DNA of 64,000 nt from Eledone cirrhosa. Taxonomy: Eukaryota. Under the pieces are notes generated by a model. The model had not been told where the DNA came from. It made no database searches and saw only the letters and a program-made list of their open reading frames with translations. The stretch spans positions 90,148,001 through 90,212,000 of the forward strand of contig OZ024741.1 in NCBI GenBank assembly GCA_964016885.1, written 5' to 3'. The position numbers and the translations under genes were made by a program. Every line of letters begins with the position of its first letter. The first letter of the stretch is position 1. Shown here piece by piece: positions 1 to 64,000 of this stretch.

Positions 1-1355
1 GTTTTTGTGTGTGTTGTGTGCTTAGTTTGCGCATGTGTTACATCCGGGTGTCTGTGTGTGTTTATATTTGTTTATTTATTTGTTTATTTACATGTTACTG
101 GTTGGTTGTTTGTTCTATGTGTTTGTGTTTTCATTTTGTCCTTAATTGTAAGTTGTGATGTTGCTATTCCATTCATGTTTTCTATTTAATTTTGGTTGGA
201 GTTCATTTATGTTTATTGTCTCTGTGATTTGTCTAAACATTGCGTCTTTTCTGTGTGCAGATTTTATTTTTATTTCTATGTTATCTAATTTTCCCTTATG
301 TTCTATTTTAGCATGTTGGTGGAGTACTGATGATTCTTTTTTATCTTGAAGCTCTCGCCAGTGTTCATTTAACCGTTCTCCTCTACTACGAGCTGTCTCA
401 CCTATGTACACTATATTCTTATCTTTACATTGTCCTTCAGTACATCTTATGCTATATACTATGTTTCTAGTTTTACAGTTAATATGGGGGCTTAGTTTAC
501 AGATTATGCATTTCTATTCTATACAGGGAGATCTTTGAAAAGGGTATGTATTACTAATAAGTGTTTTTATGGAGGTACCTGGTCTTTCTACTATCTTAAT
601 ATTAAGTTTAAGTTTATCTAGGGCCCTTATAAATTTGTAAGCTAATTCACCTCTAGGGGTTGTATTGATGAACATTACACTCTGGTATTTATTGCTATTA
701 TATCATGAGTTTATTCTATTAACCTTATTCCTAGTTCTTCTATTCTATTCCAAAATGTGCTCCTATACAAGGGGCAGGTCCCATTTGTATCATTATTTAC
801 CATTTTTTCCCATTTGGTTCTGGCTCCTCTATATACTCTGATTTTATCTCTCTGATTGTAACCAGAGAACTGCATACGGTGGATGAAGTGTTGTATGTGT
901 CTCTCTAGTTCTTTGGGGTTGCACATACGGGACACGTTTCTCATCACCCGTACTAAATCCGCAATCAGTATGTTGATTTTGGTGTGATCCGAAACAGCTT
1001 TTGGTGGATCAGATATTTGGAAGTCATGGGTTTGGCATAAGGGGAATGGAGGAAATGTTTTTTTGTTATTAATGGTTTCTAACCAGAGCTCTGTGTCTAG
1101 TACAGGTAATCGATGGTTGGGGTGTTTGCTTGGGTAGTCTATAGTAACTATAATACTCTGGTGGATGGAGTTAGCTATTTGCTGGATGCTTTCCATGGTG
1201 TTTTTCTCTAAATCCTGACTGTTCTCTAGAGTGGGTATTTTTACTACGATGTTTATATCATCAACCGTACCGAAAGTACATTATCAGGGTTAAGAGGTTG
1301 CTTTCTTCTAATTGTTCTTTAAGTTTATTGTCCCACCATACCATGAATAGGTTAG
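1..1355 (-). mobile_element. Penelope-like retroelement, family A: 5'-truncated and frameshifted body (RT C-terminal half, thumb, Cys-rich linker, GIY-YIG endonuclease, start of 3' UTR). Continues off the window start.
   Basis: Minus-strand peptides: NLFMVWWD...RY/VDDINI (RT catalytic motif broken by a frameshift, ~1255-1350), RLPVLDTELW, RMQFSGY (ORF 711..1196), and IVYSIRC...VYIGETARSRGERLNEH...EL.PKLN (ORF 142..411). These are typical PLE RT and GIY-YIG signatures. Confidence 0.9.
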
Positions 1356-2012
1356 CTTCAAGATAAAAAAAGAATCATCAGTACTCCACCAACATGTTAA
1401 AATAGAACATAAGGGAAAATTAGAGAACATAGAAATAAAAATAAAATCTGCACACAGAAAAGACGCAATGTTTAGACAAATCACAGAGGCAATAAACATA
1501 AATGAACTCCAACCAAAATTAAATAGAAAACATGAATGGAATAGCAACATCACAACTTACAATTAAGGACAAAATGGAAATACACATACATAGAACAAAC
1601 AACCAACCAGTAACATGTAAATAAACAAATAAATAAACAAATAAACACACACACAGACACCCGGATGTAACACATGCGCAAACTAAGCACACAACACACA
1701 CAAAAACAAGATGGCGTAGGACAGAACAAAGGAGAGGCACAAAACAAAGAAAAGAATCCCCAGTCACTGAAGAGGTCACATAATGTGTGACGAAATAACT
1801 TTGACAATATATGAACAACCGTCCGGTTGTGGAACCAACCAACCGGAAATTTATAAATTCTTAAATTTATAAATTTAATTTATAATAAATTGGAGTGAAA
1901 GCAACTGGTGCGTGTGTTTCTTATTGGCAACATGACCCTCCCAAAGTATAACAATATCGGTTTCAACACACGCTTTCAGATAAAGAATCTTGCTAAACAA
2001 ATTCAGAAACGA
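1356..2012 (+). mobile_element. Inverted pseudo-LTR (3'-end copy) of the family A PLE, joined to the truncated 5' end of the body and running into a (TA)n tract
   Basis: 1356-1710 is a near-identical reverse complement of 1-352. 1545-1957 matches the reverse complement of 62813-63245. An inverted 5' pLTR is a known PLE structure. Confidence 0.88.
1763..1805 (+). ncRNA. Minimal type I hammerhead ribozyme in the family A pLTR
   Basis: gtca-CTGAAGA-g-gtcaca(taatg)tgtgac-GAAA-taac-TT-tgac: stem I gtca/tgac, 6-bp stem II, complete core. Confidence 0.75.
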
Positions 2013-3003: not shown

Positions 3004-3127
3004 CTTCTCCCTCTTTCATCCATAGCGTTAACCTAATAACGAATTGTTTTTGTATCTGTTTATCATTTTTCATTATATCTATAATCATGAAGTACGAGTC
3101 AACAGGTTATAATTCACTTCTTTTATT

Positions 3128-3320
3128 CATAATTGTTTCTACTTTAGGCACAAGGCCAGCAATTACCCAGTGCATTACTGGTACTTTATTTTATCTACCC
3201 CGTAAGGATGAAAGGCAAAGTCAACCTCGGCGGGATTTGAACTCAGATCGTAAAGGGACGTAACTATGCTGGAAAGCATGGCGTCCGACCCTCTACCGAT
3301 ACTGCCAATCCACTGCCCTA
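3128..3320 (-). mobile_element. tRNA-derived SINE, family 1 (most abundant in the window; Deu/Nin-like central domain)
   Basis: Reverse strand has the B-box-like GAGTTCAAATCCCGCC followed by GACTTTGCCTTTCATCCTT...GATAAAATAAAGTACCAG. Many copies occur in the window. Confidence 0.8.
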
Positions 3321-3649: not shown

Positions 3650-5300
3650 TGTTCAGGAATCAGATCAGTCAGAGATTGACCTTGTAGATATGTTGCTGTG
3701 CTAGATGGAATTGGATCCTAGTTTGTCATTTGGGTCTCTTGCTGGTTGATTTTGCCCGTAAAATCTGTCCAGCGATTTTTTCTTGAGTCATTCATGCCCA
3801 TAGTATCGGAGCTGTGATTTCTCAATTCAAAGAAGTAGCGGCTCTACCCGGAGTGACACTCTGGTCTCAGAGCTACGCACTCTATCGAGTAACGTTACTC
3901 CAAAGACCCTTCGGAGGAGCCCCATTTCAGTCGCTTGTATTCGCGATCTTATTCTTTCGGATATTACTCACGGTTTACGACTATCTGTAAAGGTTGGCAC
4001 GAAAATCAAATTGAAGATAGCGAATTTGGCTTTTACGCCTTCCTCCTTTCTTCTGATTACTGAATGTTGAAGCTGGTGCATTACAGCACCAGTCCCAACA
4101 ATTCTTGCACTTAATTCAGCTACCTGCCTTCCATCACTTGTGAACGCGGCCGAGATACTTGAACATTTTTACTTGCTCCAGAGGAACTCCATTTTCTCGT
4201 AGAGTGCACTACGCAGACTTCCTTGCGAGGACGAGTGTCTCAGTTTTCGCAGCACTGATTTTCATTTCAGACACTTAGCATCAAACCTATCAATTGCAGG
4301 TCGGAGATTACGAGTTAAGTAACACCATGTCGTCTGCAAATTCCAGCCGACTGATTTTACACCTGCCAGTCATGATACCACATCCAACCCAGCTGCCAAT
4401 CTGGTTCATGAAAATAATGAACAGGAGAAGTGAGTCCGACTCCCACATTCAATGGTTTCAATTTGGCACTATTTATTCGAACACAAATACTCGGACATGC
4501 GTATAGTGACATCAGCGCAGCAAGAAACTGACTATTAATCCCATACTCATGCAAACCTTCCACAGCAAGTCCCGAGGAACGCGGTAATAAGCCTTTTCGA
4601 TGTTTACAAAATAAGAATATACCTTTTGGTAATACTTCCACGATTTCTCGAAAACCTTCTGCAGTGTGAATATTTTGTCGGCTGAACTGCGTTCGGCGCG
4701 AAAACCACATTGTTCATCAGCTTGCTTGGACTCGACAATCTCTTTGCATCACTTTGCCAGATACTTAGCATAGACTTTACCGGGGAAGCTTAACAAGGAG
4801 AGACCCTGTAATTGGAACAATCTCTCTTGTCTCCCTTTTTGAAAATTGGGATTATCACACCCGACTGCCATTGCTTAAATGCCTTTCCAGTGACCCAGGC
4901 CACCTGGTACCCATGATTCAGCCAGAGAATATCATCTCTATTTAAAGCTTTTAACATCTCGGGCCGGATTTCATCTTCCCCATTTAAGTCATGGGAGGAT
5001 TTTCGGGGTTAAGCTGAAATCCGACTTCAGATCAACAAATAAAGTGTTCTGGCACACCATCTGCTGACTGCGTGATAAGAAGTCCCCCACCACACCTGCT
5101 ATCCGGAACGCGTTTGAGGTCCTCTTTTCAGAGAGCTGCATCCTCGTGAGGTGGGGAAAATACTTTGCTGATCTCCTAAACCAGATCACAACAGCATCTT
5201 CTGATGTACACGAGGTTCATCAGAGAACGGTGACTAATCTCTCAGAGGTTGAGGTCACATGAGCAGTTAAGAACTCAAAGGTGGCAACGCTGCTGGTTTA
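3650..5300 (-). mobile_element. Degenerate RTE-clade LINE fragment (RT region and 3' portion)
   Basis: Minus-strand RT motif LEFADDMVLL (~4315-4350), FKYLG-like motif (~4150-4165), and upstream IIPIFKKGDKRDCSNY-like RT N-terminus (~4810-4855). Homologous to 22800-23540. Confidence 0.8.
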
Positions 5301-5737: not shown

Positions 5738-6357
5738 TACATATATATCTGTATGTGTGCATAAACATGCGCGTGTGTATTTATGCACTTATATATATAT
5801 ATATATATATGAAAAGTGTAAGTTTCTACACAAAACGAAGGTTATAGAGAAAATTGAGGTTGGTAATGGCACATGGAATATATAAGAGACAGAATACTTT
5901 TTTGTGAAAAAACATATAATTTTATAAGGTAAGGAAAGAATAAAGGGTATAAAAAATGACCGGTTTCAATGGGTCTGCAAAAGCCATCTTTTCAAATGCT
6001 GATTAATATTAAGAAAAATTATTAATAATAAGAAGAGTTAAAATTTGAGATTTGAAAATTCAAGTATAAAATTCAGTGTGGGATTTCATAGTAGTTTTCA
6101 TCTTGGTAGCAGCAAGTTGACTGTTGTGTGTCCCTTTCTGGTAGTGAATGAGGAATTATTTGTGGGGAGTGGGTTTTTTTAAGGTCAGATTTAGCAATGG
6201 CCAGATGGCCAGCTGCTGGTCAGTGAGGGGGTGGAAGCAATATACATACATATATCTCCATGTGGTCGGTAGGAGAGGGGAGAATGATAGAAAGGGATTT
6301 AGTGCACTTACACCTATATATACACATATCCTCATCCACACACACATACATATACAT

Positions 6358-6405
<48 letters not shown>

Positions 6406-6877
6406 ATACACACACACATACATACATATACATACACACATACACACACACATATATACACATACACACACACATATATACACACACACATATATACACA
6501 CACACATATATATACATACACATACATCCAGATACACACATACATACACACACACACATACATACACATATATATATATATATATGTACATACACACATA
6601 TATATATACACACACACATACATACACACACACATATATACACACACACATATATACATACACACATACAAACACACTTTGCAGACCCATCGAAACCGGT
6701 CATTTTTTATACCCTTTATTCTTTCCTTACCTTATAAAATTATATGTTTTTTCACAAAAAAGTATTCTGTCTCTTATATATTCCATGTGCCATTACCAAC
6801 CTCAATTTTCTCTATAACCTTCGTTTTGTGTAGAAACTTACACTTTTCATATATACTAACCTACGCAAATCCGGAAA

Positions 6878-8197
6878 ATGGCACTGGAACAAGACAATAC
6901 AACTTCAAACTCCAATATAAATGAGGAAATCCTGAAAATCCTAAAAGAGATAAATGGAAAACTCACTATTCTGACAAAAAACAGGATATACCCCAAACCA
7001 CCACACCGACTGACAACTAAATTTATTTAAACGTTCAAAACGTATGCAACTCCATCGAAAAACTTATGAATACCAAAACAGAACAGAAAACATTGCTCCA
7101 TATCAAAAACCAAATGGGACACCTCTGGAAAAAAACATCTAAAAACCAGAAAATTCACTTTCTGGAATATGATAAAAAACCTCAACAAAGCTGGAATTTA
7201 CCAGAAATGGATTAACTCAACACCGATAGTTTTACCACGTAAATTCCAAATAAAGCATATTACAAACGAACTTGAACCAGAAAGAAAACTCCGTGAACAA
7301 ATGTCACTCAACAGGATAAACATGGAAATAGAACTCCTAAAATTAAGGGCCACCTCCAACGAGCAAGAGTATAAGGATACTGATAAAAAAATGGAGGAAG
7401 AATGCACTATAAAGGCCGAGGGAACAACCCTACACAATTTAATCAAATCGTGGAAATAGGACTGCGAGAATGCAGAAATTATTTCCCTTAAACGGTGGGA
7501 AAAATCCGAAAACTGGTTCCTCAAATATGAAGAAGACTTTAAAAGGACGCACCAAACAGGTAACCCCTTTATAAAGCATTTGAACATAACAAGAACTACA
7601 ACAGACACATTTACACCACCAAACCCAACACACACACTAACCACAGGCACATCCCCCACCAACACAAACCAAATACGGCCAACTACACCAAAAGAAACAC
7701 ACCCAACCACCACAACACAGGTTTCCGTAGAAATACCCCCTACATAAACCAACAACGAAATAACATAGATCCAACTCACAACACACACACCACATTCCTC
7801 AGAAGAAATCCACCCAGACCACTTGAAATCACAACAGAACTTACCCACAACCACACCAGACATCACTCTCAATCCAACAAAAGACAACCCACCAACCTCA
7901 ACAGAAATAACGCACCCAGACCACATGAACCAACAACAGAACCCTTGCTCATTAACAACCACAACACATACCACCCCCACCATCACATTCACCCTCATGA
8001 AACAACAAGCTACAGACCCACACGCAACAGACCAACAAAATATAATCACACACAAAACTACATCCTTTTTTAGGGAAAAGCCTGAAATACCAGGATACTC
8101 GATGCCCCCCCCCCCCCCCCCCCCCTCAGGAGAAACCAAAAATAATCAACCTCTCAAAGACACCTCTAACCAACACACAAATCAACATTTTAAGTAA
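6878..8197 (+). pseudogene. Disrupted upstream ORF or N-terminal extension of the family B PLE (charged helical region followed by a Thr/Pro-rich linker)
   Basis: ATG at 6878. One frame runs from 7169 to 8197 with isolated stops (7457, ~7745, ~7766), and there are frameshifts before 7169. It overlaps the start of the RT frame. Confidence 0.6.
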
Positions 8198-10391
8198 GGG
8201 CCTGAAATTTACACCTACACCACGTAAACCAAACTTCCCCGAAATGAAGGATGACATCATAGAATTCTGCCGAAAGCTGCGACTAACGGAATTCTTCCAC
8301 AACGACACCAACACTGAAGACGAATCACTGGTTAGAAATAAAAGCAATTTCTGCCCACAAAAGGGAAGAAATAAAGCACTGGACACGTACTGCGAACACA
8401 TCACCAACTTTCCCTATGAAAAAATTACAAATAAACACACGAAATCAAACCTATCTACACACGAATGGGAAGAATTATTCACACTTAGAAACAACCCTGA
8501 GATAACCATCAAAGAAGCCGATAAAGGCAGTACTGTTGTCATTATGAATACGGACTACTATAGGACCCTCGCACTTAACATTTTAGAAAACAACACATAC
8601 TATGAAAAAACAGAAAACTACAAACACACCAAAACAATGGGGAACCTTTTGACCTTACTGAATAAATACCGCAACAGCTTAACCACAAAAGAGTTTAACT
8701 ATATAAGCCACTTCAAATACAATACAAGCTCATTTTATGGCTTACCGAAACTCCACAAATGTAAACCCATAAACGATGCATGTGACACCTCAACCAACAA
8801 TTACATTGAACTAACACCACCAGAAGACCTAAAACTCAGGCCAATTATAGCAGGCCCTACATGTGAAACCCACAGACTTAGCAACTTTCTGGACATCCTA
8901 CTGAAACCCTTTCTACAACATATACAGAGCTACATACGAGATGACCTTGAAATGCTGAAACACCCCCCTAAAACAGTAAGTGCAAATACAATTCTTGTCT
9001 CCTTTGACGTAATAAACCTCTACACAAACATACCCCATAACTATGGAATAACAGCAATCCAATACTGGCTTAACACACACCCATCAGAAATACCGACACG
9101 CATCAACAAAGATTTTATCACTGACGGACTCCGCTTTATCCTACAAAATAACTACTTCACATTCAATGGTTCAACATACAGACAAGTATCAGGTACTGCA
9201 ATGGCCACGAAAGTAGCACCCACATATGCCAACCTAGTCATGGGATTCCATGAACAACAAATATACAGTCAGTCCCTTCTCTTATTTGGAGACTCTTTCC
9301 ACAGACACCTCAAAGCCAATTGGAAAAGATATCTAGACGACTGCTTTATCCTATGGCAAGAAGACATGAACTCACTTACTATGTTTAAAAACATGATAAA
9401 CAACATAGATAATAACATACAATTCACAATGGAATCCGATCCCAAGGAATTAGCCTTCTTGGATATTCTCATCTCTGTAATAGACGGGAAATTAGATACA
9501 GATATATTCTATAAACCCACAGATTCCAAGCAATACCTCTTTTTCACATCAAGTCACCCAAAACATACAAAACTTAACATTCCTTTCAATTTGGCCAAAC
9601 GTATATGTACCATAGTATCAGATCCACCTAAACGGGAGCAAAGACTAAAGGAACTAAAAGACACCCTTATCTTAAGAGCCTTTCCACTTGAAATAATCAA
9701 CAATGGAATAGACAGGGCAAAACACCTAAATCCCCATCAACTTAACAATCCAAAACAGAAAACCACACTCAACACCCTGCCATATGTATCCACTTTCAAC
9801 CCCAGAAATACCGAAATGTTTGATCACCTACACAAAAACCTCCCCATCCTACTTAAAGATGTAAAAATGAAGTCTATTCTTGAAACACACAAGATCCTTA
9901 AAAGTAAAAGACAACCCAAATCACTAAAACGCATTCTCACTGGACCAAATATACCCAAACCAATCCTCAACCCTACAGTTACCAAATGTGGTAGAACAAA
10001 CTGTGGAACGTGCCTCTACCTCACTGAAGGACAAAAATTTACATTTAAAGATGGCCAAACATTTACAGTAAAAAACAATTTCACCTGCAACTCGGAGAAC
10101 TTGATTTACGCAATAACTTGCGGTGGGTGCAAACACAACTACATAGGACAGACGGGCACCTCATTACGCAAAAGAATGACCATCCACCGCCAACAAATCC
10201 GGGACGCTAACACAAGAAAAATCCCCTTGAGCAGCCATATTGCGAACTGCGCAGGAATGACACTACCCAACTTTAAAATCTTCCTCTTCTACAAGTGCTC
10301 AGATTCGTTCACACAGCAACAAAGAATAAACAAAGAAAATCTATTCCTTAACAAATTTAAACCAAAACTAAACAGGTTATCACCCCAATAG
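8124..10391 (+). CDS. PLE reverse transcriptase + C-terminal GIY-YIG endonuclease (715 aa from Met 8244; the frame is open further upstream)
   Basis: In-frame IINLSKTPLTNTQINILSKGLKFTPTP upstream of the Met. Motifs IKEADKG, YGLPKLHK, LRPII, SFDVINLYTNIP, GTAMATKVAPTYANL, RYLDD, FLDI, YKPTD, HPKH, CxxC linker, LIYAITC...YIGQT...R...H, PKLN. Confidence 0.96.
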   Translation, partial: PQEKPKIINLSKTPLTNTQINILSKGLKFTPTPRKPNFPEMKDDIIEFCRKLRLTEFFHNDTNTEDESLVRNKSNFCPQKGRNKALDTYCEHITNFPYEKITNKHTKSNLSTHEWEELFTLRNNPEITIKEADKGSTVVIMNTDYYRTLALNILENNTYYEKTENYKHTKTMGNLLTLLNKYRNSLTTKEFNYISHFKYNTSSFYGLPKLHKCKPINDACDTSTNNYIELTPPEDLKLRPIIAGPTCETHRLSNFLDILLKPFLQHIQSYIRDDLEMLKHPPKTVSANTILVSFDVINLYTNIPHNYGITAIQYWLNTHPSEIPTRINKDFITDGLRFILQNNYFTFNGSTYRQVSGTAMATKVAPTYANLVMGFHEQQIYSQSLLLFGDSFHRHLKANWKRYLDDCFILWQEDMNSLTMFKNMINNIDNNIQFTMESDPKELAFLDILISVIDGKLDTDIFYKPTDSKQYLFFTSSHPKHTKLNIPFNLAKRICTIVSDPPKREQRLKELKDTLILRAFPLEIINNGIDRAKHLNPHQLNNPKQKTTLNTLPYVSTFNPRNTEMFDHLHKNLPILLKDVKMKSILETHKILKSKRQPKSLKRILTGPNIPKPILNPTVTKCGRTNCGTCLYLTEGQKFTFKDGQTFTVKNNFTCNSENLIYAITCGGCKHNYIGQTGTSLRKRMTIHRQQIRDANTRKIPLSSHIANCAGMTLPNFKIFLFYKCSDSFTQQQRINKENLFLNKFKPKLNRLSPQ

Positions 10392-11102
10392 AATTGTCAT
10401 AAAATATAAACACACATACGCACGGAGTGACAGATATGTGTGTGTATGTGTGCATGTATATAATTATCACTACTATTAAAGACCAGAGACCAATTCTGTA
10501 GAATCAGGTTTATTCGTTGACAGACCATGCCTTTGTGTGGCCAACACATCCATGTTAAACCCTGCACGTGCACACACATATATCTATATATATATGCGCA
10601 CACAGAATTCACCACTGTCGGTTGCGGGGCCCTATCTACATGAAGAACTCAATGTGATCAGAATGACTTGTATTTTAATTTCACTGTTCTAACTTCTTAT
10701 ATTATGGAAAAAATATATGTGTATGTATGTATATATATATATTTGGAGGCCATTTCTCTATGTGTGTGGGTGTATGTATGTGTATGTGTGTGTATGTATG
10801 TGCATGTGGATATTTATGTGTGTATGTATGTGTGTGTGTGTGTGTATGTATGTGTGTATCTGGATGTATGTGTGTGTATATATATGTGTGTGTGTGTGTG
10901 TATATATGTGTGTGTATGTGTATATATGTGTGTGTGTGTGTTTGTATGTGTGTATGTATATATGTGTGTGTGTATGTATGTGTGTGTATATATATATATA
11001 TGTGTATGTACATATATATATATATGTGTATGTGTGTGTGTGTGTGTGTGTGTATGCATGTGTGTATCTGGATGTATGTGTATGTATATATGTGTGTGTG
11101 TA

Positions 11103-11143
<41 letters not shown>

Positions 11144-11166
11144 ATATGTATGTGTGTGTGTATGTA

Positions 11167-11231
<65 letters not shown>

Positions 11232-11590
11232 ATGTATATGTATGTGTGTGTGGATGAGGGTATGTGTATATATAGGTGTAAGTGCACTAAATCCCTTTCT
11301 ATCACTCTCCCCTCTCCTACCGACCACATGGAGATATATGTATGTATATTGCTTCCACCCCCTCACTGACCAGCAGCTGGCCATCTGGCCATTGCTAAAT
11401 CTGACCTTAAAAAAACCCACTCCCCACAAATAATTCCTCATTCACTACCAGAAAGGGACACACAACAGTTAACTTGCTGCTACCAAGATGAAAACTACTA
11501 TGAAATCCCACACTGAATTTTATACTTGAATTTTCAAATCTCAAATTTTAACTCTTCTTATTATTAATAATTTTTCTTAATATTAATCAG

Positions 11591-11635
11591 CATTTGAAAA
11601 GATGGCTTTTGCAGACCCATCGAAACCGGTCATTT
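11591..11635 (+). ncRNA. Hammerhead-like motif in the family B pLTR with a U3/A8 core (inverted copy at 5957-5998; 3' half only at 6679-6705)
   Basis: cat-TTGAAAA-gatgg(cttttgcagac)ccatc-GAAA-ccgg-TC-att. 5-bp stem II, palindromic CCGG stem III, GUC site. Stem I is weak. Confidence 0.55.
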
Positions 11636-11733
11636 TTTATACCCTTTATTCTTTCCTTACCTTATAAAATTATATGTTTTTTCACAAAAAAGTATTCTGT
11701 CTCTTATATATTCCATGTGCCATTACCAACCTC

Positions 11734-11833
<100 letters not shown>

Positions 11834-12509: not shown

Positions 12510-13125
12510 TTTTTAGCACAAGGCCAGTAATTTGGAGGAAAGTCGATTAAATCGACACCTCAGTACGTTACTGGTACTTTATTTTATCGACCCCGTAAGG
12601 ATGAAAGGCAAACTCAGCCCGTAAAGGTCGGTAACTCTATGATCCAAAGCATGGTGTCTGACACTCTACCGATACTGTCAATCCACTACCCTTTTATGAA
12701 ACATTTATAATAATTGTTTCTACTCTTGGCAGAAGGCCAGCAAATATCCAGTGCATTACTGGTACTTTATTTTATCGACCCCGTAAGGATGAAAGGCAAA
12801 GTTAACCTCGGCGGGATTTGAACTCAGAATGGCAAGGGCCGTAACTCTATGCGTCAAAGCATGGCGTCCGACTCTCTACCGATACTGCCAATAATGATTT
12901 GCATTTATAATAATTGTTTCTACTTTAGGCACAAGGCCAGCAATTACCCAGTGCATTACTGGTACTTTATTTTATCGACCCCGTAAGGCAAAGTTAACCT
13001 CGGCGGGATTTGAACTCAGATCGCAAAGGACCGTAACTATGCTGGAAAGCATGGCGTCCGACCCTCTACCGATACTGCCAATTTATAATAATGATTTATG
13101 AAACATTTATAATAATGATTTATGT
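12510..13125 (-). mobile_element. Three tandem family 1 SINE copies separated by repeated target sequence
   Basis: Copies at ~12510-12690, 12712-12890 and 12912-13080. The spacer CATTTATAATAAT is repeated. Confidence 0.85.
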
Positions 13126-17077: not shown

Positions 17078-17240
17078 CAATTGTTTTTACTTTTGGCACA
17101 AGGCCAGCAATTATCCCAGTGCATTACTGGTACTTTATTTTATCGACCCCGTAAGGATGAAAGGCAAAGTTAACCTCGACGGGATTTGAACTCGGAACAC
17201 AAAGGCCGTAACTCTATGCTGCAAAGCATGGCGTCCTATC
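17078..17240 (-). mobile_element. Family 1 SINE
   Basis: Near-identical to 3128-3290 and 12712-12890. Confidence 0.85.
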
Positions 17241-17312
17241 CTCAGTCGGCGAAACTATGCAGTCTGGACTTCGAAGAAATATTTGGTATTTTTTGTCTAT
17301 TTGCTCTTCACA

Positions 17313-18844: not shown

Positions 18845-18886
<42 letters not shown>

Positions 18887-18900
18887 ACACACACACACAC

Positions 18901-19520
18901 AATAATAGCCTGCGCATCGGCTTTTCCTTGAGGCTCGGCCTCCAGATCTGCGAGCCACACCAATGTCGCTGCAGATCCACCGTGGACCCTTTCGGCCTCC
19001 ACCTGCTTTCCTGTCGCCACAGTGCCGGCCGCCTTCCACGCCACGTTGCCCCCAACGAGGTCATAAAGCATGGCTTGAACGTTGCAGGCTTCCCTTCCCA
19101 GCTCGAGCTGGTGGGGCTGGACCGAGGGGACGGCAAAAGGCCAGATGGCATGACCATCTTCCCGTTCCGCGGTGGCAAACCCCTCGTCTGGGATGCCACT
19201 TGCACCGACACTTTCTGCAGCCGCAACCTGGTGCAGTCTGCGATTAACTCAGGTTCTGCTGCACGTCGGGCTGAGGGGGCCAAACTCCTCAAAAACCGGT
19301 CGCTCTCCGACAGGTTTACGGTTGTACCCCTGGCAGTGGAGACTTCTGGTGTCCTCGGCCCTAGGGCTACTTCTCTACTCACCACCATAGGCGCTGAGCT
19401 GACAGCCGCAGGTGTAAGCCCCGCTAGTTGGAGTGGCTTTTCCAGCGCGTCTCCCTTGCCATCCTCCGGGTAGCACCTTCTCCATTCTGACCGCTGGGGC
19501 TGGGGGGGGGGGGGCATCAC
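18901..19520 (+). mobile_element. 5'-truncated CRE-clade non-LTR retrotransposon fragment (Cys/His zinc knuckle + restriction-like endonuclease)
   Basis: ORF 18928..19473 has RLG..CEPHQCRC...HLLSC...RH..PN, KRPDG, WDATCTDT, AE.AK, VPLAVETSG.LG. After a frameshift it reads WLFQRVSLAILR. GC-rich island directly after (CA)n. Confidence 0.85.
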
Positions 19521-21165: not shown

Positions 21166-21259
21166 AATAGAAAAAACGAGGAAGTTTCGTTTACATATGA
21201 AAAAACGCGCGCAATAAATATTTTTCATATGTAAATGAAACTTCCTCGTTTTTTCTATT
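21166..21259. repeat. Near-perfect hairpin with 39-bp arms
   Basis: 21166-21204 and 21221-21259 are reverse complements apart from one G-T pair. Confidence 0.9.
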
Positions 21260-22141: not shown

Positions 22142-22276
22142 TGTAAGGTTAGTAAAATTTAGTTGTGGCGGTCGGCCAACATCCGCGAAAAAACAATTCT
22201 GAGCTTGCACGAAGCACTCAATAAGAATGTATCGATAAATCGATAGGTTACATCTTAGAGTAATAAACATACGTCA

Positions 22277-22308
<32 letters not shown>

Positions 22309-22769
22309 TGACGTATGTTTATTACATATATACATATATATCGTTCAAGATTAAAAAAACAAACACAGTCTTATTAGTTTCACAGTTGTAGGTAAACGGA
22401 AAGAAATTTCTCAAGTATCAGACGTTAGTCCTTCATTGAAAGCAGTAAAGTAAGGAGACACACCTACACACACACGTACGTGTGCACATACGTAATCAGA
22501 CACACACACACAAACACACACGCACACATATAGTGGTATGCAAATACAACAGTGTATGTATCATCACTATAGCTTTGTTGAGAATAAGTAGCTATTCGCT
22601 TTTTGAAATTTCAGTCTTACTATGTACTTAGATGTTCTATTTGTTTACTCTTACAGGTAAGAAATAGGCGGAATTGAGTGGCTTTAGTGAAATTGTAACA
22701 CAGCTTGCTGGAATACTTAGCAGATGTGAGGTACGTTTCCACTTTTCTGCCTCTTTCTCCTCCTCCTCC

Positions 22770-24020
22770 TCTTTCTTCTTCTTCTTCTTCTTCTTCTTCC
22801 ACTTATTTCTGAGAGGGTCGTGGGGGCAGGGTTCTCAAACACTCCTTCCAGCGGGTCTTGCAACCGTCTCCAACTGATCCGGCTGGATCTCCAAGTGCGA
22901 CAAGCCAAGATCATAGATGTTATCCAGCCACCTTGCTCGTTGTCTACCCTTTGGTCTCCTGCCGGTTGGTTTTGCCCGTAAAATCTACCCAACGATTCTA
23001 ACCACATACCTATTCTCCGAGCTCCGCACTCTATTGTATAACGTTACTCCAAAGACCCTTCAGAGGAACTCCATTTCGGCCACTTTCGCGACCTTATTCT
23101 TTCGGTCATTACCCAAGATTCATGACCATAGGTAAGGGTTGGCACGAATACCGAATTGAAGATAATGAGTTTGGCTTTTACGCCTACCCCATTCTTCTGA
23201 ATGCTGAAGAAGGCGCATTACTGCACCTGTTCCTGCAATTCATATACTTAATTCAGCCTCCTGCCTTCCACCACTCATGAACATGGCTTTGAGATACTTG
23301 AACTTCTCCACCTGCTTCAGTGAAACTCCATTTACATATAGAGTGCATTCATTTTTCGTAGCACTGATTTTCCTTCCAGCTAGCAGCACTCGGCATCAAA
23401 CTTATCGAGTGTAAGTCGGAGATCACCTTCTGTGGAATTAAGTAACACCATATCGTCTGCAAATTCCAGTCGAATGATTTTATACCCGCCAGTCATCATA
23501 CCACTTCCAACCCAGCTGCGCATGTCAATCCTGTTCATGTAAATAATGATTTCCAGTATAGGCACAAGACCAGTAATTTGGGGGGAGAGGAAACTCAATT
23601 AAATCGACCCCAGTACGTTACTTGTGCTTTATTTTATCGACCCGTAAGGATGAAAGGCAAAGTTAACCCCGGCGGGATTTGAACTCAGACAGTAAAGGAC
23701 CGTAACTCTATGCTGCAAAGCATGGTGTCCGACTCTCTACCGATGTTCATGTAAATAATTGTTTCTACTTTTTGGCACAAGGTCAGCAATTATCCCAGCG
23801 CATTACTGGTACTTTATTTTATCGACCCCGTAAGGATGAAAGGCAAAGTTAACCTCGGCAGGATTTGAACTCAGAATGACAAGGGCCGTAACTCTATGCA
23901 TCAAAGAATGGCGTCCGACCCTCTACCGATACTGCCAATCCACCGCCATTGTTCATGTATGTTCATGTAAATAATGAACATGAGAGGTGACACTACACAC
24001 CCGACTCCGACTCCCTCATA
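22770..24020 (-). mobile_element. RTE-clade LINE 3' fragment with (GAA)n tail, interrupted by two family 1 SINEs (23545-23950)
   Basis: ORF 23380..23598 contains KIIRLEFADDMVLL. EQVEKFKYL lies at ~23295-23320. (TTC)n at 22772-22799 is the tail. The LINE sequence resumes at 23961 and matches 4404-4445. Confidence 0.85.
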
Positions 24021-27990: not shown

Positions 27991-29739
27991 ACAGTAGAAA
28001 ATGATGAAGAAATCACTGAGGCTGGGAAAATTCGTGGGTCAACCCCATGCCCCCCCCCCCCCCTTATCTACTGTTGATATATTGGCTTTATTGGAAGTTG
28101 GACACTTCGTCGGATATATTTCGTTTTTGTAGTGCAAACATGGCAGCATCGGAATTATTGTTGACGTATTTGAGAGAGAAATACAGACATTACATTTGAG
28201 TTAGTTTGAGATAGGGAGAGGTGGAGTGTGTGAGAGCTGGAGTAGTATTTCAATCTCTCTATATATTGATAGCATGACGGACAAACAGTACATTGGTGCT
28301 AGAAAGAGCAGTAAATTCTCCCCCAACTCATCCCGCATTCCCTTTTCGGAAAATAAGTCGACAGTTAGCTTGACACACGAAACCCTTAATTATTATCAAT
28401 TTTATTTAGTGTTAGTTTTCTTTAGTCATTAAAAAAAACCATACATGACAAAAAAGTAGATTACCAGAAATCCCATACGTTACAAAATAAATAGGATGGG
28501 TTGGTGTCTCAATTTCTAAACTAAACCACTAATTCTGTTGTTTTTTTAATCAACGGAGACAGCCTAGAAAAATTACCAATTTTCCACCGCCAACTTATTC
28601 CAACTCCCCAATTATTTGGAACCAGAGAGTATATAGATAGATGACGGACGAATAGACAGACAGAATCTGCCTGGTAGGAAGAACAGTAAATTCTCCTCCG
28701 ACCCCCCCCCCCCCCGCCCCATTCCATTTTCGGAAAATAAGTCGACAGCGAGCTTGCTGGAGGTCAGAATTGTTGAAAACACACCTTAATTATTACCAAT
28801 TTTATTTAGTGTCATTCGCGGTCAACGTACAAACTTCAAATTTCCTTTTTATAAATATATATATACACACACACATACATATATATATATAATGATATAT
28901 ATAATATATATAATGTGCATATGTGTGTACATGTGAGCGAGCATGCATTTAGGAACTAATATGTGTAACTTAGTATATGTCTGTGTGTGAGAGAAAGAGA
29001 ATGTGTGTGTGTATGATGGAAATATCAGCAACACTAGCAGCAGAAACACTAACCTAATTGTTTTAACTTAATTCCAAAGGTTAACCACACTACTGGTGGT
29101 GATAGTGGTGACGGTTGTGGTATCAGCAGTGCTGCTGATGGTAGTGTTGTTGTATTCTTTGATTTTCATTGTTTTATTCTGTTTGTTTATTAATCTCTAT
29201 TTGCTCATTCGTAAGTAACAACAATTCTTTTCATTATCAGTCCCACCGAGGTTAACTTTGCCTTTCATCCTTACGGGGTCGATAAAATAAAGTACCAGTA
29301 ACGTACTGGGTAATTGCTGGCCTTGTGCCTAAAGTAGAAACAATTATCAGTATATGTTTCCTGGCTTGTAATGATTTAGCAAACAAATTATATAAAAACG
29401 AGTTTGTTTATTCAATTGCTTGTAGTATCTGTATTAATGGACAGATTGATGTGAAAATTTTCTGTTAACTAAAGTCTTCAAATTTTAATGTAATTCAATC
29501 ATAATACTGTTTTGTACTTTCCAAGAATGCCATGTTAATGCGATTTCATGTGGTACAGGATGTTAAGATTTAAGTATCAGTCAATCACTAAAGTCGATGG
29601 ACTCGACTGTTTCTTTCCTCAAAATGTGTGGGCTTTTGCATATGTTATGTTTTTTTTAATGGTTTCATGCGAGTTTACTGTATAACCAGGTGAACCTTCT
29701 ATGTTTATGTGGCGTGTTATATAGTATTGTGTGTGTGCG

Positions 29740-37625: not shown

Positions 37626-38982
37626 GTTGTTGTTAGTGGTGGTAGTCGACATGGTCGTAGGCGTAGTCATAGTAGAAGTAATACCCCTAAGCATTATTAT
37701 TGTTCATTTAGCTTGGGTTGGAATTTATCAATAAAATTCTTTTCTTTAATTTTTCTCTTGATTTCACTTGGGCTGTGTAGTTTGTAGAATGGAAATATTA
37801 TAAATATTTTCTGACCACATGTTGCTAGATGGTTACTCAGGGGTATCTGACGGACATTTGGGTCTCTGGTTTGCTGTCGGTGCACCCGTGCACGTTCCGA
37901 TAGTGCATTTCCAGTTTCACCGACATATAGTTCTTCACAATTCGGGCATTTAATGCAGTAAATTAGATTTCTGCTTTTGCAGTTCATATTTGCATTTGGG
38001 AATATTTTTCCAATTTTTGTGTTCATATATTGACCAGTATGTATGAACTGACATGTGCCACATCGACTATCATTGCATTTAGATACAGTGAATGATTGGT
38101 CTTTGTTGTTAAAGTCAAACTTTGCCTTTGTTAGTAATTGCATCAAATTTTTCGGCTGTCTTTTACTAAGAATCAAAGCTCAGTCTGTGATTAAACCTTT
38201 TAATTCATTACTTTGAGCAATGATCAGTAGGTTTGCTTTGGTAGTGTTGAAGATATTCTGGTGACATGGGTTGTGTGTCATTATAAATGGTATGACCAGT
38301 TCTTGGTTTCTTCTTCCTTGGGTTGTTCTAAGTTGTTGTATAGGTATTTTTATAGCCTGCTGTATGCCATTTTCTATAGTGGTTTCAAAATAATGTCAAC
38401 AAAATTGCTTAGACGGTGGATAGGGCATGTTAGGCGGGGCTATAATAGGTCTAAGTTTTAAGTCTTTTGGGTGTAGTAATTTAATGTACTCACTTTTTTA
38501 TTCTTTTACTGCCAGTTGGATTTCTATGACTTATGAATTTTTGGTACGCCACAAAAATTGCTGGGTTTTGGCTCAAAATTGGTGATGTAGCCTCTTTTAT
38601 TATCAGTAAGAGAGTTGTAGTATTTTGAAGCCAGGTTGTTGATTTTCTTCATGATGTTGTGGTCTATATTTGACGGTATTTCATGGTAGAATGTTGTCTT
38701 TCAGTTGTTCCTCAACCAAATCTTTGTAGTATTCAGCATCCATTATAATAATTGCACCCCCTTTATCTGCTTGTTTAATTATTGTTTATCATTTTGTATA
38801 CGTTTAAGTGCAGACATTTCCGATTTGTTAATGTTTGGCCTAACATTAGTATTACGTCTAAGAGGAAATTTAGACAGGATATCAATGTATTGGTCGAGGT
38901 AGATATTTCTTCCTTTTGGCGGAGTGAAATTTGATTTATTCTTTACTAGTGATTCATCACTCTCATTACTTTTATCAGCGAA
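37100..38982 (-). mobile_element. Degenerate family B-like PLE with the RT core deleted; GIY-YIG region still open (37697..38176)
   Basis: SKRQPKNL...KCNDSRCGTC...CKSRNLIYCIKCPNC..LYVGETG...RVHRQQ...PKLN. The N-terminal DESLVKNKSNFTPPKGRN and QADKGG motifs parallel the 8244 ORF. Confidence 0.9.
37238..37276 (-). ncRNA. Minimal type I hammerhead ribozyme in the 3' region of the 37-39 kb PLE
   Basis: Reverse complement: tgaac-CTGAAGA-t-tgc(gaaa)gca-t-GAAA-gtac-TT-gttca. 5-bp stem I, palindromic GTAC stem III. Confidence 0.8.
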
Positions 38983-38990
38983 GATATATG

Positions 38991-39026
<36 letters not shown>

Positions 39027-39665
39027 TGTATGTATGTATGTATGTATGTATGTATGTATGTATGTATGTATGTATGTATGTGTATATATATATAACGAAG
39101 GAGGTATGGTAAGGAACCAGATGGACCATAACGCACCAGAGTACTCAATACTTAGGGTAGTAGAGTGGGTAATAGGAAAAAATATATATATATGTATATA
39201 TGAAAATATATGACCCCGACGGCAGAGCTCAAGCCGTCGAAATAGCCTTTGGTGACCATCCAGGATTTGACTACTGTGATTTACTGATTAATTGGTGAAA
39301 TATATTTTTTATTTAAAGAAATATATACAAAGGAGATTAATCATTTTAAAAGTTCTAGTTAAACTTTAATTGGTTACCTACCTAGCTATGTATGCTTACA
39401 TACTTTACAAATTATTCCCTGTGCTTGTTCCATATGTTTATTTTATATATATATGTCAATCTATTTCTAGTTGATATGAAATGCTCGGATCTATTCATTG
39501 GAATCTTTGAGCTTATTCTGCAGTGGATATGGCGCATGTCTCTCAGACATGACAATCCTTAATTTAGTTTTGGATATATATATGTATATTTACAGATATA
39601 TTTACATATGCATACATATGTCCCCTATATATATGTCTATATTTATATATGTATATATATACATG

Positions 39666-48568: not shown

Positions 48569-49768
48569 ATACCACATACATACGGGTGAACAAGGGATCT
48601 TCAATGTAGTCACTTGACTGACCGGCTAGAAATACCAACCAAGTCTCCCTAAAATCTGAACTTACTGTCTTCTAAAAGAACACGTTGAATAGTCTTGAGA
48701 TACCAGCACATAAGAACAAAATTGAGTGGACACAACTGGAATGTCTTTGATCATGAGCGATTACCTGAAAAAATTAAAGAAAACAACATAAAATTACACC
48801 ATATACACATACATCCAGCCTCGCAATGGAGGTAGGCATCTGTGTATAAGCGAGCTGGAAAGACGGTTTCGATTACAATTTGAAATCACTTAAAACATCG
48901 TTGTTAATAATGGTTTCTCATATAGGCACAAGGCCAGAACATTTTTTTAAATCGGCCCCAGTGCGTGACTGGTACTTTATTTTATCGATCCCGTAAGGAT
49001 GAAAGGCAAAGTTAACCTCGGCGGGATTTGTACTCGGATCATAAAAGGCTGTAACTCTCTGCTGCAAAGCATAGCGTCCGACCCTCTACCGATACTTCCA
49101 ATCCACAATTTTGACGAGAGAGAGGGAGAGAGAGGAGTCGACACCAGTATTGGACTGGTACTTTATTTAGCGATACCGAAAGGATTAAGGTCAATGTTGC
49201 CTTAGGCGAGATTTGAAATAAGAGAGTCGGAATAAATATCGTGGTGCAATGACTACCAATTTGACGTTTTGTAAATAAAATGCTATTAGAAAAGACGTGA
49301 CTGTAACAAACCCCAATTCCTCTTCTACCTCTCGCTAAAAATTCCCACCTTCCAAAGTGTATTTTTGTGTTAAGTAATCAATAGTAGTATCACTTCTACT
49401 GTCTCTCTCGTTATACTTGTATTCGAAATTTTGACGTTTTCTGACTGCCATCATTCGTTCCTGTCCCCAGATTCATTAGTCAACGCTTTTCTGACAGCTT
49501 TATTTTGTCTGTATTGTAGTTGTTTAATAGATATATGGTGAAAGACTTTCCAGCTGCAATTATCCATTCTTTTATTCGCTCATGATTAAATACATTCCAG
49601 TTGTGACCACACAGTCTTGTTCTTATGTGCAAGTATCCCAATTTTACATTATTCAACGTGTTCTTTTAGAAGAGAGTGAATTTAGATTTTAAGGGGACTT
49701 GGTTGCTATTTCTAGCCGGTCAAGTGACTGCATTGAAGATGGCTTGTTCACTCGTATGTATGTGGTAT
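48569..49768. repeat. Diverged inverted repeat, ~190-bp arms (48569-48760 and 49576-49768)
   Basis: The arms are reverse complements end to end, with shared termini ATACCACATACATAC and TCATGAGCGA. Confidence 0.8.
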
Positions 49769-54169: not shown

Positions 54170-54355
54170 AATAATTGTTTCTACTTTTGGCGCAAGGCCA
54201 GCAATTACCCCAGTGCATTACTGGTACTTTATTTTATCGACTCCGTAAGGATGAAAGGCAAAGTTAAACTCAGTGGGGTTTGAAATCAGACCGTAAAGGG
54301 CCGTAACTCTATGCTACAAAGCATGGTGTCCGACACTCTACCGATACTGCCAATA
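54170..54355 (-). mobile_element. Family 1 SINE (further copies ~29240-29348 +, 30850-31010 +, 43948-44090 +, 45670-45815 +, 48908-49110 -, 50265-50410 +, 52300-52460 +, 55842-56055 -, 56905-57125 -)
   Basis: Same B-box and GCCTTTCATCCTT...GATAAAATAAAGTACCAG core. Confidence 0.8.
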
Positions 54356-60969: not shown

Positions 60970-62812
<1,843 letters not shown>

Positions 62813-62816
<4 letters not shown>

Positions 62817-63648
62817 TGTTATACTTTGGGAGGGTCATGTTGCCAATAAGAAACACACGCACCAGTTGCTTTCACTTCAATTTATTATATATTTATAATT
62901 TTATAAATTTACAAATCTACAAACCTATAAATTTCTGGTTGGTTGGTTGGTTCCACAACCAGATAGTTGTTTATATATAGTCATAGTCCTTTCGTCACAC
63001 ACTCTGTGACCTCTTCAGTGACTGGGGATTCCTTTCTTTGTTTCTGTGCCTTTCCTTTCTTCTATCCTACGCCATTTTGTTTCTGTGTGTGTGTGTTGTG
63101 TGCTCAGTTTGCACATGCGCCACATCCGGGTGTCTGTGTGTGTTTGTGTTCATTTATCTATTTGTTTATTTATTTATTTATTTATTGGTTGTTTGTTCTA
63201 TGTGTGTGTGTGTTTTCATTTTGTCCTTAATTGTAAGTTGTGATGTTGCTGTTCCACTCATATTTTCTATTTAATTTTGGTTGTAATTCTTTTATGCTTA
63301 CTGCCTCTGTAATTTGCCTAAACATTGCGTCTTTTCTGTGTGTGGATTCTATTTTTATTTCTATGTTCTCCAATCTACCCCTGTGTTCCATCTCAGCATG
63401 TTGGTAGAGCACAGATGACTCCCCACTATCCCGAAGGTCCCGCCAGTGCTCACCCACCCGTTCCCCTACACTACGAGCCGTCTCACCCATGCACACCACA
63501 TTTCTGCTTCTACATTGTCCCTCAGTACATCCCATGCCATACACTACACCTCCAGTTTCACAGTCAATATGGGGGCTTATTTTACAGGTTATACATTTCC
63601 CATCTATACATGAGGGTCTTTGGAACGGGTATGTCTTGCTAATAAGTG
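62813..63648 (-). mobile_element. Family A PLE 3' segment (GIY-YIG + pLTR), A-to-G hypermutated. Probably the inverted 5' repeat of an element continuing on + beyond 63650.
   Basis: Colinear with 1-562 and with the reverse complement of 1356-1957. ORF 63227..63766 has VVCMGETARSVGERVGEH. Confidence 0.9.
62980..63022 (-). ncRNA. Minimal hammerhead ribozyme, family A pLTR
   Basis: Reverse complement: gtca-CTGAAGA-g-gtcaca(gagtg)tgtgac-GAAA-ggac-TA-tgac. Confidence 0.78.
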
Positions 63649-64000
63649 CAATAGCAACATACCCAGAAACAACAACAACAGACACGCAGACACAAACAAC
63701 AATAACAACACACACAACAACGATAACACACACGGAGACAACAACAACACACGTCAACAACAACACACATCAACAACAACAACACACACGCATTCAATGC
63801 CTCTCACCACCACCACAATCTTAACAAACACACAGACACAGAAAACAAGTAATGACAGTAGCACAGAAATCAGAGAAATAAGGGAAAGTAATAAGATTAA
63901 AAGGAAAAGGAGATGGGAGACTAAGGACAAAGAGAATAACCAAGACGAACACACAGACACACAAAATAGGGTAGATAACAACATTGAGCCAGTGGAAAGA
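63649..64000 (+). mobile_element. Probable N-terminal low-complexity coding region of a PLE body on the + strand
   Basis: A/C-rich Thr/Asn/Gln-coding sequence then a charged stretch, starting abruptly at the inversion junction. Composition resembles 7560-8060. No diagnostic motif inside the window. Confidence 0.4.

Follow-up and report, generated by a model that had tools for sequence, protein, structure and literature searches.

A probable ADAR footprint shared by both arms of a Penelope-like insertion in the genome of the octopod Eledone cirrhosa

Can A-to-I editing of a retrotransposon RNA become fixed in the DNA of its host? A 64,000-nucleotide stretch of the Eledone cirrhosa genome (GenBank assembly GCA_964016885.1, contig OZ024741.1, positions 90,148,001 to 90,212,000 of the forward strand; hereafter the window) raises this question. 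Near its right end, the endonuclease region of a Penelope-type element differs from a paralog in the same window chiefly by T>C on the plus strand, that is, by A>G on the sense strand of the element. A preliminary description of the window attributed these changes to ADAR, acting on a transcript that had folded back on its own inverted pseudo-LTR and was then inserted.

The structure of the insertion was examined in flanking DNA that extends beyond the window (locus L062, in which window position = L062 + 62000). A single insertion lies inside a (TA)n repeat and consists of an 837-bp inverted arm, or inverted pseudo-LTR (window 62813-63649, minus strand), that meets a 3.3-kb body (L062 1650-4980) head to head. 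A (TA)n-rich microsatellite (60970-62812, left bound approximate) adjoins the left end, and the right end likewise abuts (TA)n. The window includes the 5' start of the body (63650-64000, plus strand), which is unedited; the body runs on to about G000:C2:90214980 and contains the whole A>G tract (L062 2918-4368) and a 66-bp tail, which is present at the 3' end of the body and missing from the inverted arm. The arm is a copy of L062 4090-4924 and is 99.2% identical to that 3' end, differing by 5 substitutions and one 2-nt indel, none of which is A>G relative to sister copies. A twin of the edited stretch in the window lies on the opposite strand at a distance of 2.7 kb, outside the window. The insertion is young, with about 0.3% change per arm since insertion, and the 5 substitutions between the arms, consistent with the divergence of the sisters, indicate that the edited DNA is likely to be inherited.

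An endonuclease remnant of the GIY-YIG type persists in the arm as an open, heavily recoded frame (63230-63649, minus strand). PF01541 (GIY-YIG) matches the unedited paralog (window 145-513) at E=2e-4 and 22.1 bits, slightly below the 22.6 cut-off, and gives no match to the edited copy at E<=0.1. Matches to RVT_1 are weak (E=0.011 for the edited body and 1.2e-4 for a neighbouring family, all below curated cut-offs), and the weak RT and GIY-YIG matches stand in the order expected for an RT followed by a C-terminal endonuclease. Atlas look-alikes of the neighbouring family show RT, HTH_animal and GIY-YIG at 0.96-0.97, and open frames of 1154 and 1208 codons were found in two of four sisters inspected. 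The family thus combines an RT and, C-terminally, a GIY-YIG domain in one ORF with direct or inverted pseudo-LTRs and a one-sided tail, as in EN+ Penelope-like elements, and this architecture suggests the clade label Penelope/Poseidon. The edited body lacks the 5' ORF part present in tandem sisters and carries a 1-bp deletion and a 14-bp insertion, so it is broken independently of the A>G changes. The arm also contains an unedited, minimal hammerhead-like motif (62979-63023, minus strand; CTGAAGA, a 6-bp stem, GAAA, a short stem and a 5-bp closing stem, with core pattern and stem found by script), which by eye may be a type I hammerhead; an Rfam search returned no hammerhead match, only microsatellite look-alikes of microRNA families.

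A degenerate motif of 32 bases, taken from the endonuclease region, has 5984 matches in the 3.0-Gb genome. Copies retrieved with the 5' part of the body are 97-99% identical to it, and the sisters about 99%. To polarize the changes, the per-column majority of 57 sister loci (L033-L060 and L065-L093; 106 alignments) served as reference; this set excludes the element's own loci and 30 others, which belong to the paralog's subfamily. Relative to this reference, the body shows 95 A>G, 4 G>A, 3 T>C, no C>T and 9 transversions, and a tract of 1451 bp (~1.45 kb, L062 2918-4368) holds 91 A>G and no T>C. At the rate of the sisters, 1451 bp would contain about 2 A>G; given this expectation and the asymmetry of 91 to 0 (p=8e-28), chance is ruled out. 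The sister loci carry A, which upholds the direction assigned in the preliminary description, and the changes are specific to the sense strand. Three of the 91 sites are polymorphic in the sisters (G in 10/42, 14/68 and 6/71), where the G may be inherited rather than edited. The edges of the tract are sharp: among adenosines that follow U or A, 0/226 are edited before it (L062 1649-2917), 80/313 within it and 1/175 after it. Editing affects 17% of all adenosines in the tract and 26% of those after U or A. The part of the tract seen in the window (63371-63649, minus strand) comprises 36 A>G among 113 A, at 63371-63601, and a G at the arm's first base (site 4090), where 67 of 68 sisters have A. 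DNA editing by APOBEC, which is expected to yield G>A on the sense strand, was rejected as a source, with 4 G>A found versus 95 A>G.

The counts first reported for this region (about 39 T>C, 2 C>T and 10 other changes) are reproducible, since global alignment of 287-495 with 63372-63580 gives 39, 2 and 11. However, the paralog in the window is the wrong yardstick for edits because it is a member of a different subfamily. It is the long arm (1-1357, minus strand) of an unedited two-armed insertion, extends about 250 bp past the left edge of the window and has 97% matches elsewhere in the genome. A segment at 1356-1500, previously cited as a third copy, is not independent; it belongs to the inverted arm and tail of the same insertion (1354-2010, plus strand, right bound approximate), which is 97.2% identical to the long arm. 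The full match to the paralog (63088-63648 versus 6-563) contains 53 A>G and 5 G>A when read in element sense. When 63372-63580 is compared with its true sisters, 33 of the 39 changes are private, and the interval shows 33 A>G among 85 A and no other change. A weaker bias had also been described on either side. On the 5' side of the element it is genuine, as a further 1.2 kb of the tract lies in the body outside the window. On the 3' side it disappears (0 A>G among 68 A at 63240-63370), and the apparent bias there reflects the subfamily difference from the paralog.

The proposed sparing of adenosines with a 5' G was assessed from the bases next to each site. In this copy, 5/112 adenosines are edited after G versus 34/132 after U (Fisher p=2.7e-5), with 46/182 after A and 6/121 after C. 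By 3' base, the edited fraction is highest before G (30/123), followed by A (29/183), C (19/119) and U (13/121); a 3' G accompanies 29% of edits versus 20% of sites, and a 3' A is not enriched (36% versus 38%). When 10 tracts from nine insertions are pooled, the 5' pattern is U 313/636, A 420/1066, C 102/571 and G 61/481 (p=5e-53), and before a 3' G 261/545 are edited versus fractions of 0.25-0.30 for the other bases (p=1e-16). The changes are thus one-way, clustered, favoured after U or A and depleted after G, as in an ADAR footprint. Hyper-edited RNA sites reported for octopus prefer a 3' G weakly (20-25% of sites) and are enriched for a 3' A (PMC5625713), whereas the 3'-G preference here is stronger.

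Synonymous changes make up 18 of the 78 coding changes versus 116 of 448 possible ones; there is therefore no synonymous bias and no sign of selection on the coding changes. Two of them convert the YIG motif to CMG (63485-63493, minus strand; TAC>TGC and ATA>ATG), as the preliminary description had read from the protein, and A stands at these sites in 66 and 65 of 68 sister rows. The lost tyrosine likely corresponds to Y17 of an anole Penelope-like element, mutation of which abolishes cleavage (PMC11167929).

The changes are private to one insertion, the next-best match to the edited stretch in the genome being 89% identical among 40 scored of 2000 candidates, and no descendant of this copy was seen in the same search. 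None of the outcomes named beforehand as arguing against editing occurred: the consensus does not carry G, no subfamily shares the changes with a synonymous bias, 5'-G depletion is evident, and the reads do not show the unedited bases, the read support being a single 80-nt contig. This contig, from run X3, equals L062 4150-4229 with 0 mismatches at a depth of 11.5 and includes 9 edited sites; the kind of run is not on record, and it may derive from the assembled individual. The genome gave 12 PF02137 (adenosine deaminase) matches at 4 places, and one exon contains the catalytic motifs CHAE, PCGD and SCSDK and is 95% identical to Octopus vulgaris ADAR2. The octopod host therefore has a predicted ADAR2 in which the catalytic motifs are kept, as the attribution to ADAR had supposed.

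Hyper-edited copies were sought genome-wide with two motifs in which G was forced at two sites, which gave 5 and 8 matches. These amount to 10 distinct matches, compared with 5984 for the degenerate motif, and come from eight insertions including this copy. All seven other insertions are hyper-edited, with 89-154 A>G versus 0-5 T>C. Light editing (15 A>G, 1 T>C) is also seen in L036 (= L102), which is among the 57 sisters, so that eight further insertions in all show 15-154 A>G versus 0-5 T>C per long arm. For L099, L100 and L110 the references are more distant (3.6-4.9% at other sites), and a few of their changes are background for that reason. Edit patterns differ among insertions (Jaccard 0.15-0.57), which indicates separate events. 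The 3' edges of the tracts range from 4310 to 4852, and the last 140 nt (L062 4853-4990), which include both end points and the tail, carry 1 A>G in all arms inspected; they are spared either because they were unpaired, or because they were shielded by protein or required for copying. Among the first 100 of the 5984 degenerate-motif matches, one has at least 3 G. Heavily edited copies make up about 0.2-1% of the family, a rough lower range. A third, 70%-identical Penelope-like family, whose copy number is not established, gave 0 edited matches in one search. In this element family, the phenomenon is real, well supported and recurrent.

If an element's RNA had folded on its own inverted arm, edited and then inserted, the two arms are expected to carry mirror-image, independent edits. 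Instead, where the two arms overlap the tract, they carry the same element-sense changes, with shared versus private A>G of 38/0 in this element, 113/4 in L108, 50/3 in L109 and 102/0 in L111; in L099 and L100 the arms overlap in unedited sequence only and are uninformative. The edits therefore preceded the arms and were present in the template. The A>G cluster is also not confined to the segment covered by the inverted repeat, since 55 of the 91 edits lie outside the inverted arm, and the ~550 bp at the 3' end with which the arm would pair (L062 4369-4924) contain 1 A>G. In another insertion, L115 (described below), the edited piece would be loop rather than stem. The literal fold-back model of the preliminary description therefore fails, and we give it hardly any weight despite the 835-bp near-perfect inverted repeat in the element, the frequency of head-to-head arms among its relatives and the involvement of an inverted repeat in an avian retrovirus precedent (PMC12925331). 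A more serious contender accepts the ADAR edits as real and has the second arm made or homogenised at the DNA level, by fold-back synthesis on cDNA or later conversion. The arms are 97-100% alike (those of L111 are identical over 973 aligned bases), and RNA and a displaced sense DNA strand would look the same in sequence as second template. However, in L062, L108 and L109 the edits are shared although the two arms disagree at 5, 9 and 3 other sites, respectively. Past position 4880, 73 of 77 alignments of relatives end at two points, 4924 or ~4990, which match the reverse-transcription starts reported for the anole element (PMC11167929). In L109, the tail is on the short arm and a 5' extension on the long one; with each arm containing sequence that the other is missing, neither is simply copied from its counterpart, and a common template holding both points to RNA. 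We therefore regard a DNA-level origin of the second arm as possible but rather unlikely.

Hypermutation without any RNA editing is a further alternative, and polymerase-driven hypermutation does exist in retroviruses. Error-prone reverse transcription under nucleotide imbalance could in principle generate one-way changes; its errors, however, would not recur in two separate copying passes. A DNA adenine deaminase finds some support in the ability of ADAR to act in vitro on the DNA strand of hybrids (PMC12925331), but deamination of first-strand cDNA would read as sense T>C, of which the tract has none. Since, in addition, the neighbour pattern and sharp edges are repeated in nine insertions, we consider both versions very unlikely. 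Least probable of all is an artefact of assembly or sequencing, a diverged subfamily or GC-biased conversion: read-level support is indeed limited to one short contig, but the same edits stand on opposite genomic strands in the two arms, the alleles occur in no other copy (among 40 scored of 2000), and subfamily differences are symmetric, lie mainly at third codon positions and lack the context.

These observations make it very likely that ADAR editing of RNA, followed by retro-insertion, produced the A>G tract: 91 one-way changes in an ADAR-like context, with eight further insertions, uphold this core of the preliminary description. The fuller account, in which ADAR acted on a 1.45-kb dsRNA, inosines were written as G and the same RNA was copied twice into the two arms, is in our judgement also highly probable. 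A sense transcript of a sister copy would have paired with antisense element RNA over L062 2918-4368, as the sharp edges suggest, and ADAR, the enzyme to which the pattern points, would have deaminated adenosines of this tract. The element protein would then have nicked both strands of the (TA)n target, and reverse transcription would have started at two 3' positions that are fixed in the family, lie 66 nt apart and correspond to the observed end points. Double nicking and two start sites are taken from the anole element, which in vitro nicks the two strands of the target, extends each of them and initiates reverse transcription from two sites that flank the tail (PMC11167929). One copy would have run for 3.3 kb and the other for 837 bp before they were joined head to head, the arrangement now observed; the insertion then gained its ~0.3% change per arm, with no detected offspring. 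Double priming on one RNA molecule probably took place, as it fits the shared edits, L109 and the end points. In L1 twin priming, both target nicks prime on one RNA and yield an inverted piece, and the two pieces do not overlap. The present insertion resembles it in the inverted piece and the presumed use of both nicks on one RNA, whereas here the 3' part is copied twice.

Candidate partners for the duplex are the donor's inverted arm, transcribed from within the arm, or antisense RNA from another of some 6000 copies. Within the double-copying account, an edited hairpin formed at the donor locus has somewhat less than an even chance, and its weak point is that no donor was found: a search of the genome for an exact 3'-UTR motif containing two rare alleles hit this element's own two arms and nothing else, and among the head-to-head relatives listed none has both a body that extends to 1649 and an arm that starts near 2900. 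The sharp tract edges do not coincide with this copy's own arm. Fold-back at the donor, with transcription starting inside the arm, and pairing in trans appear about equally plausible.

The strand of editing was examined with antisense versions of the forced motifs. At the endonuclease region, the antisense motif gave 0 matches in the genome versus ~2.5 expected from the mirror set of nine, a weak result (P about 0.08). A second one, at the ORF end, gave 1 match, in L115. This small two-armed insertion (L115 4689-5295; G000:C28, about 77515090-77515695) has arms that are antisense-sense chimeras, each consisting of an antisense piece joined to a sense 3' end. Eight of 18 changes in the antisense piece read A>G on the template strand, and the sense 3' end is unedited; in the printed sequence, the arms have the same antisense-piece edits over their overlap. 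L115 was therefore rejected as an antisense-edited copy, and editing follows the template strand. Because the edited piece would be unpaired in a fold-back of that junction, L115 points to a partner strand elsewhere. A junction motif for its donor matched L115 only in the genome.

The preliminary description also proposed that editing might act as host restriction or as a diversity generator. Because insertion of the edited RNA went ahead, restriction, if any, would act on the daughter copy. Little effect is visible, with less than about 1% of copies heavily edited, and RNAs removed before insertion would leave no trace. The role of a diversity generator finds no support in the data for this family: this copy has no descendant among the candidates scored, and the two subfamilies differ symmetrically (A>G ~ T>C), chiefly at third codon positions and without ADAR context, so editing does not explain family diversification here. 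An edited subfamily founder was rejected overall on the same grounds. At L062 4618-4654 (window about 63085-63121), 5 A>G in 37 bp separate the subfamily majorities, possibly a small edited patch in a founder.

ADAR-type A-to-G hypermutation has been reported in avian retroviruses (Rous-associated virus as well as avian leukosis virus; PMC12925331). As here, it is dense, one-way, found in a reverse-transcribed element and linked to double-stranded regions; those viruses, however, are exogenous, whereas the present family is endogenous, with edits at at least nine chromosomal sites of an animal genome and duplicated on two arms. APOBEC scars in LTR retrotransposons are likewise clustered, strand-biased, context-dependent, fixed in genomic copies and polarised against sisters, but they are G>A changes that arise when cytidines of cDNA are deaminated, and they occur in vertebrate LTR elements, whereas here A>G, likely made on RNA, is found in an invertebrate Penelope-like element. 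The screen that describes them used a G-to-A filter, was empty for invertebrates and does not mention ADAR in its main text (Knisbacher and Levanon, PMC4866542). In RNA, lizard Penelope transcripts are heavily hyper-edited, and octopus tops the table of hyper-edited reads (Porath et al., PMC5625713); that work reports the same 5'-G depletion in the same element class, but as mismatches between RNA and genome, whereas here the changes sit in the genome itself. A mouse provirus shows an A>G excess without ADAR context (PMC12548423).

Penelope/Poseidon-type EN+ elements are described with the features found here, namely an RT with C-terminal GIY-YIG, an inverted 5'-truncated arm, a tail at one end, a candidate hammerhead-like motif and an AT-rich target (PMC11167929, PMC8557442); their tail is given as 30-40 bp, compared with 66 bp here. 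Their structure has been described with the mechanism left open (PMC8557442), and the edits, which mark the template molecule, bear on insertion steps that these papers call not yet validated (PMC11167929, PMC8557442). A literature search judged by titles and abstract openings, with most subscription journals not covered, found no ADAR footprints fixed in endogenous retrotransposons. Recording of ADAR hypermutation through reverse transcription is of a known kind, seen here in an endogenous element of an animal genome.

If correct, this account means that, in the group of animals that edits most, A-to-I changes made in RNA can pass directly into heritable DNA; it also gives invertebrates a counterpart to the scars left by APOBEC in vertebrate retroelements. 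It would also imply ADAR activity on element RNA in the germline or early embryo, readable from assemblies alone, and shared edits make the build-up of the inverted pseudo-LTR and tail of Penelope-like elements testable without bench work. The extent is limited: by a lower-bound estimate, heavily edited copies amount to well under 1%, and spread or gain of function was observed for none of the edited copies. With moderate confidence, we propose that ADAR edits regularly enter the octopus germline via Penelope-like elements (~1 in 100 to 1 in 500 copies). The edits would then serve as single-molecule barcodes showing that both target nicks primed on one RNA at two fixed starts, which would explain the inverted pseudo-LTR and one-sided tail, and the tract edges would map the antisense RNAs by which the host marks the element.

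Several other repeats were recorded nearby. A third Penelope-like family (the 70%-identical one) occupies L062 6383-10000, at a distance of 1.4 kb from the edited element; its arms are 99.8% alike, and it has an open frame of 725 codons. Another, unrelated at the DNA level, is found at window 8046-10391, where a 781-codon open frame shows RT-like and GIY-YIG-like motifs by eye and is flanked by 94%-identical inverted repeats (5846-6670 and 10927-11743). More GIY-YIG-like or RT-flanking fragments of Penelope type were seen by eye at 37697-38179 and 38779-39144, and an open frame at 18847-19473 resembles the C-terminal nuclease region of a non-LTR element. Outside this family, L063 220-1793 contains nested inverted repeats of ~99% identity (614, 369, 207 and 183 bp). 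A SINE-like dispersed repeat of ~190 bp, 80-95% alike, occurs in the window at 3123-3317, 12710-12892, 12910-13082, 17079-17243, 23755-23947, 29241-29347, 48901-49106 and 54171-54354, and palindromes are present at 22260-22325 (66 bp, perfect) and 21166-21259 (82%).
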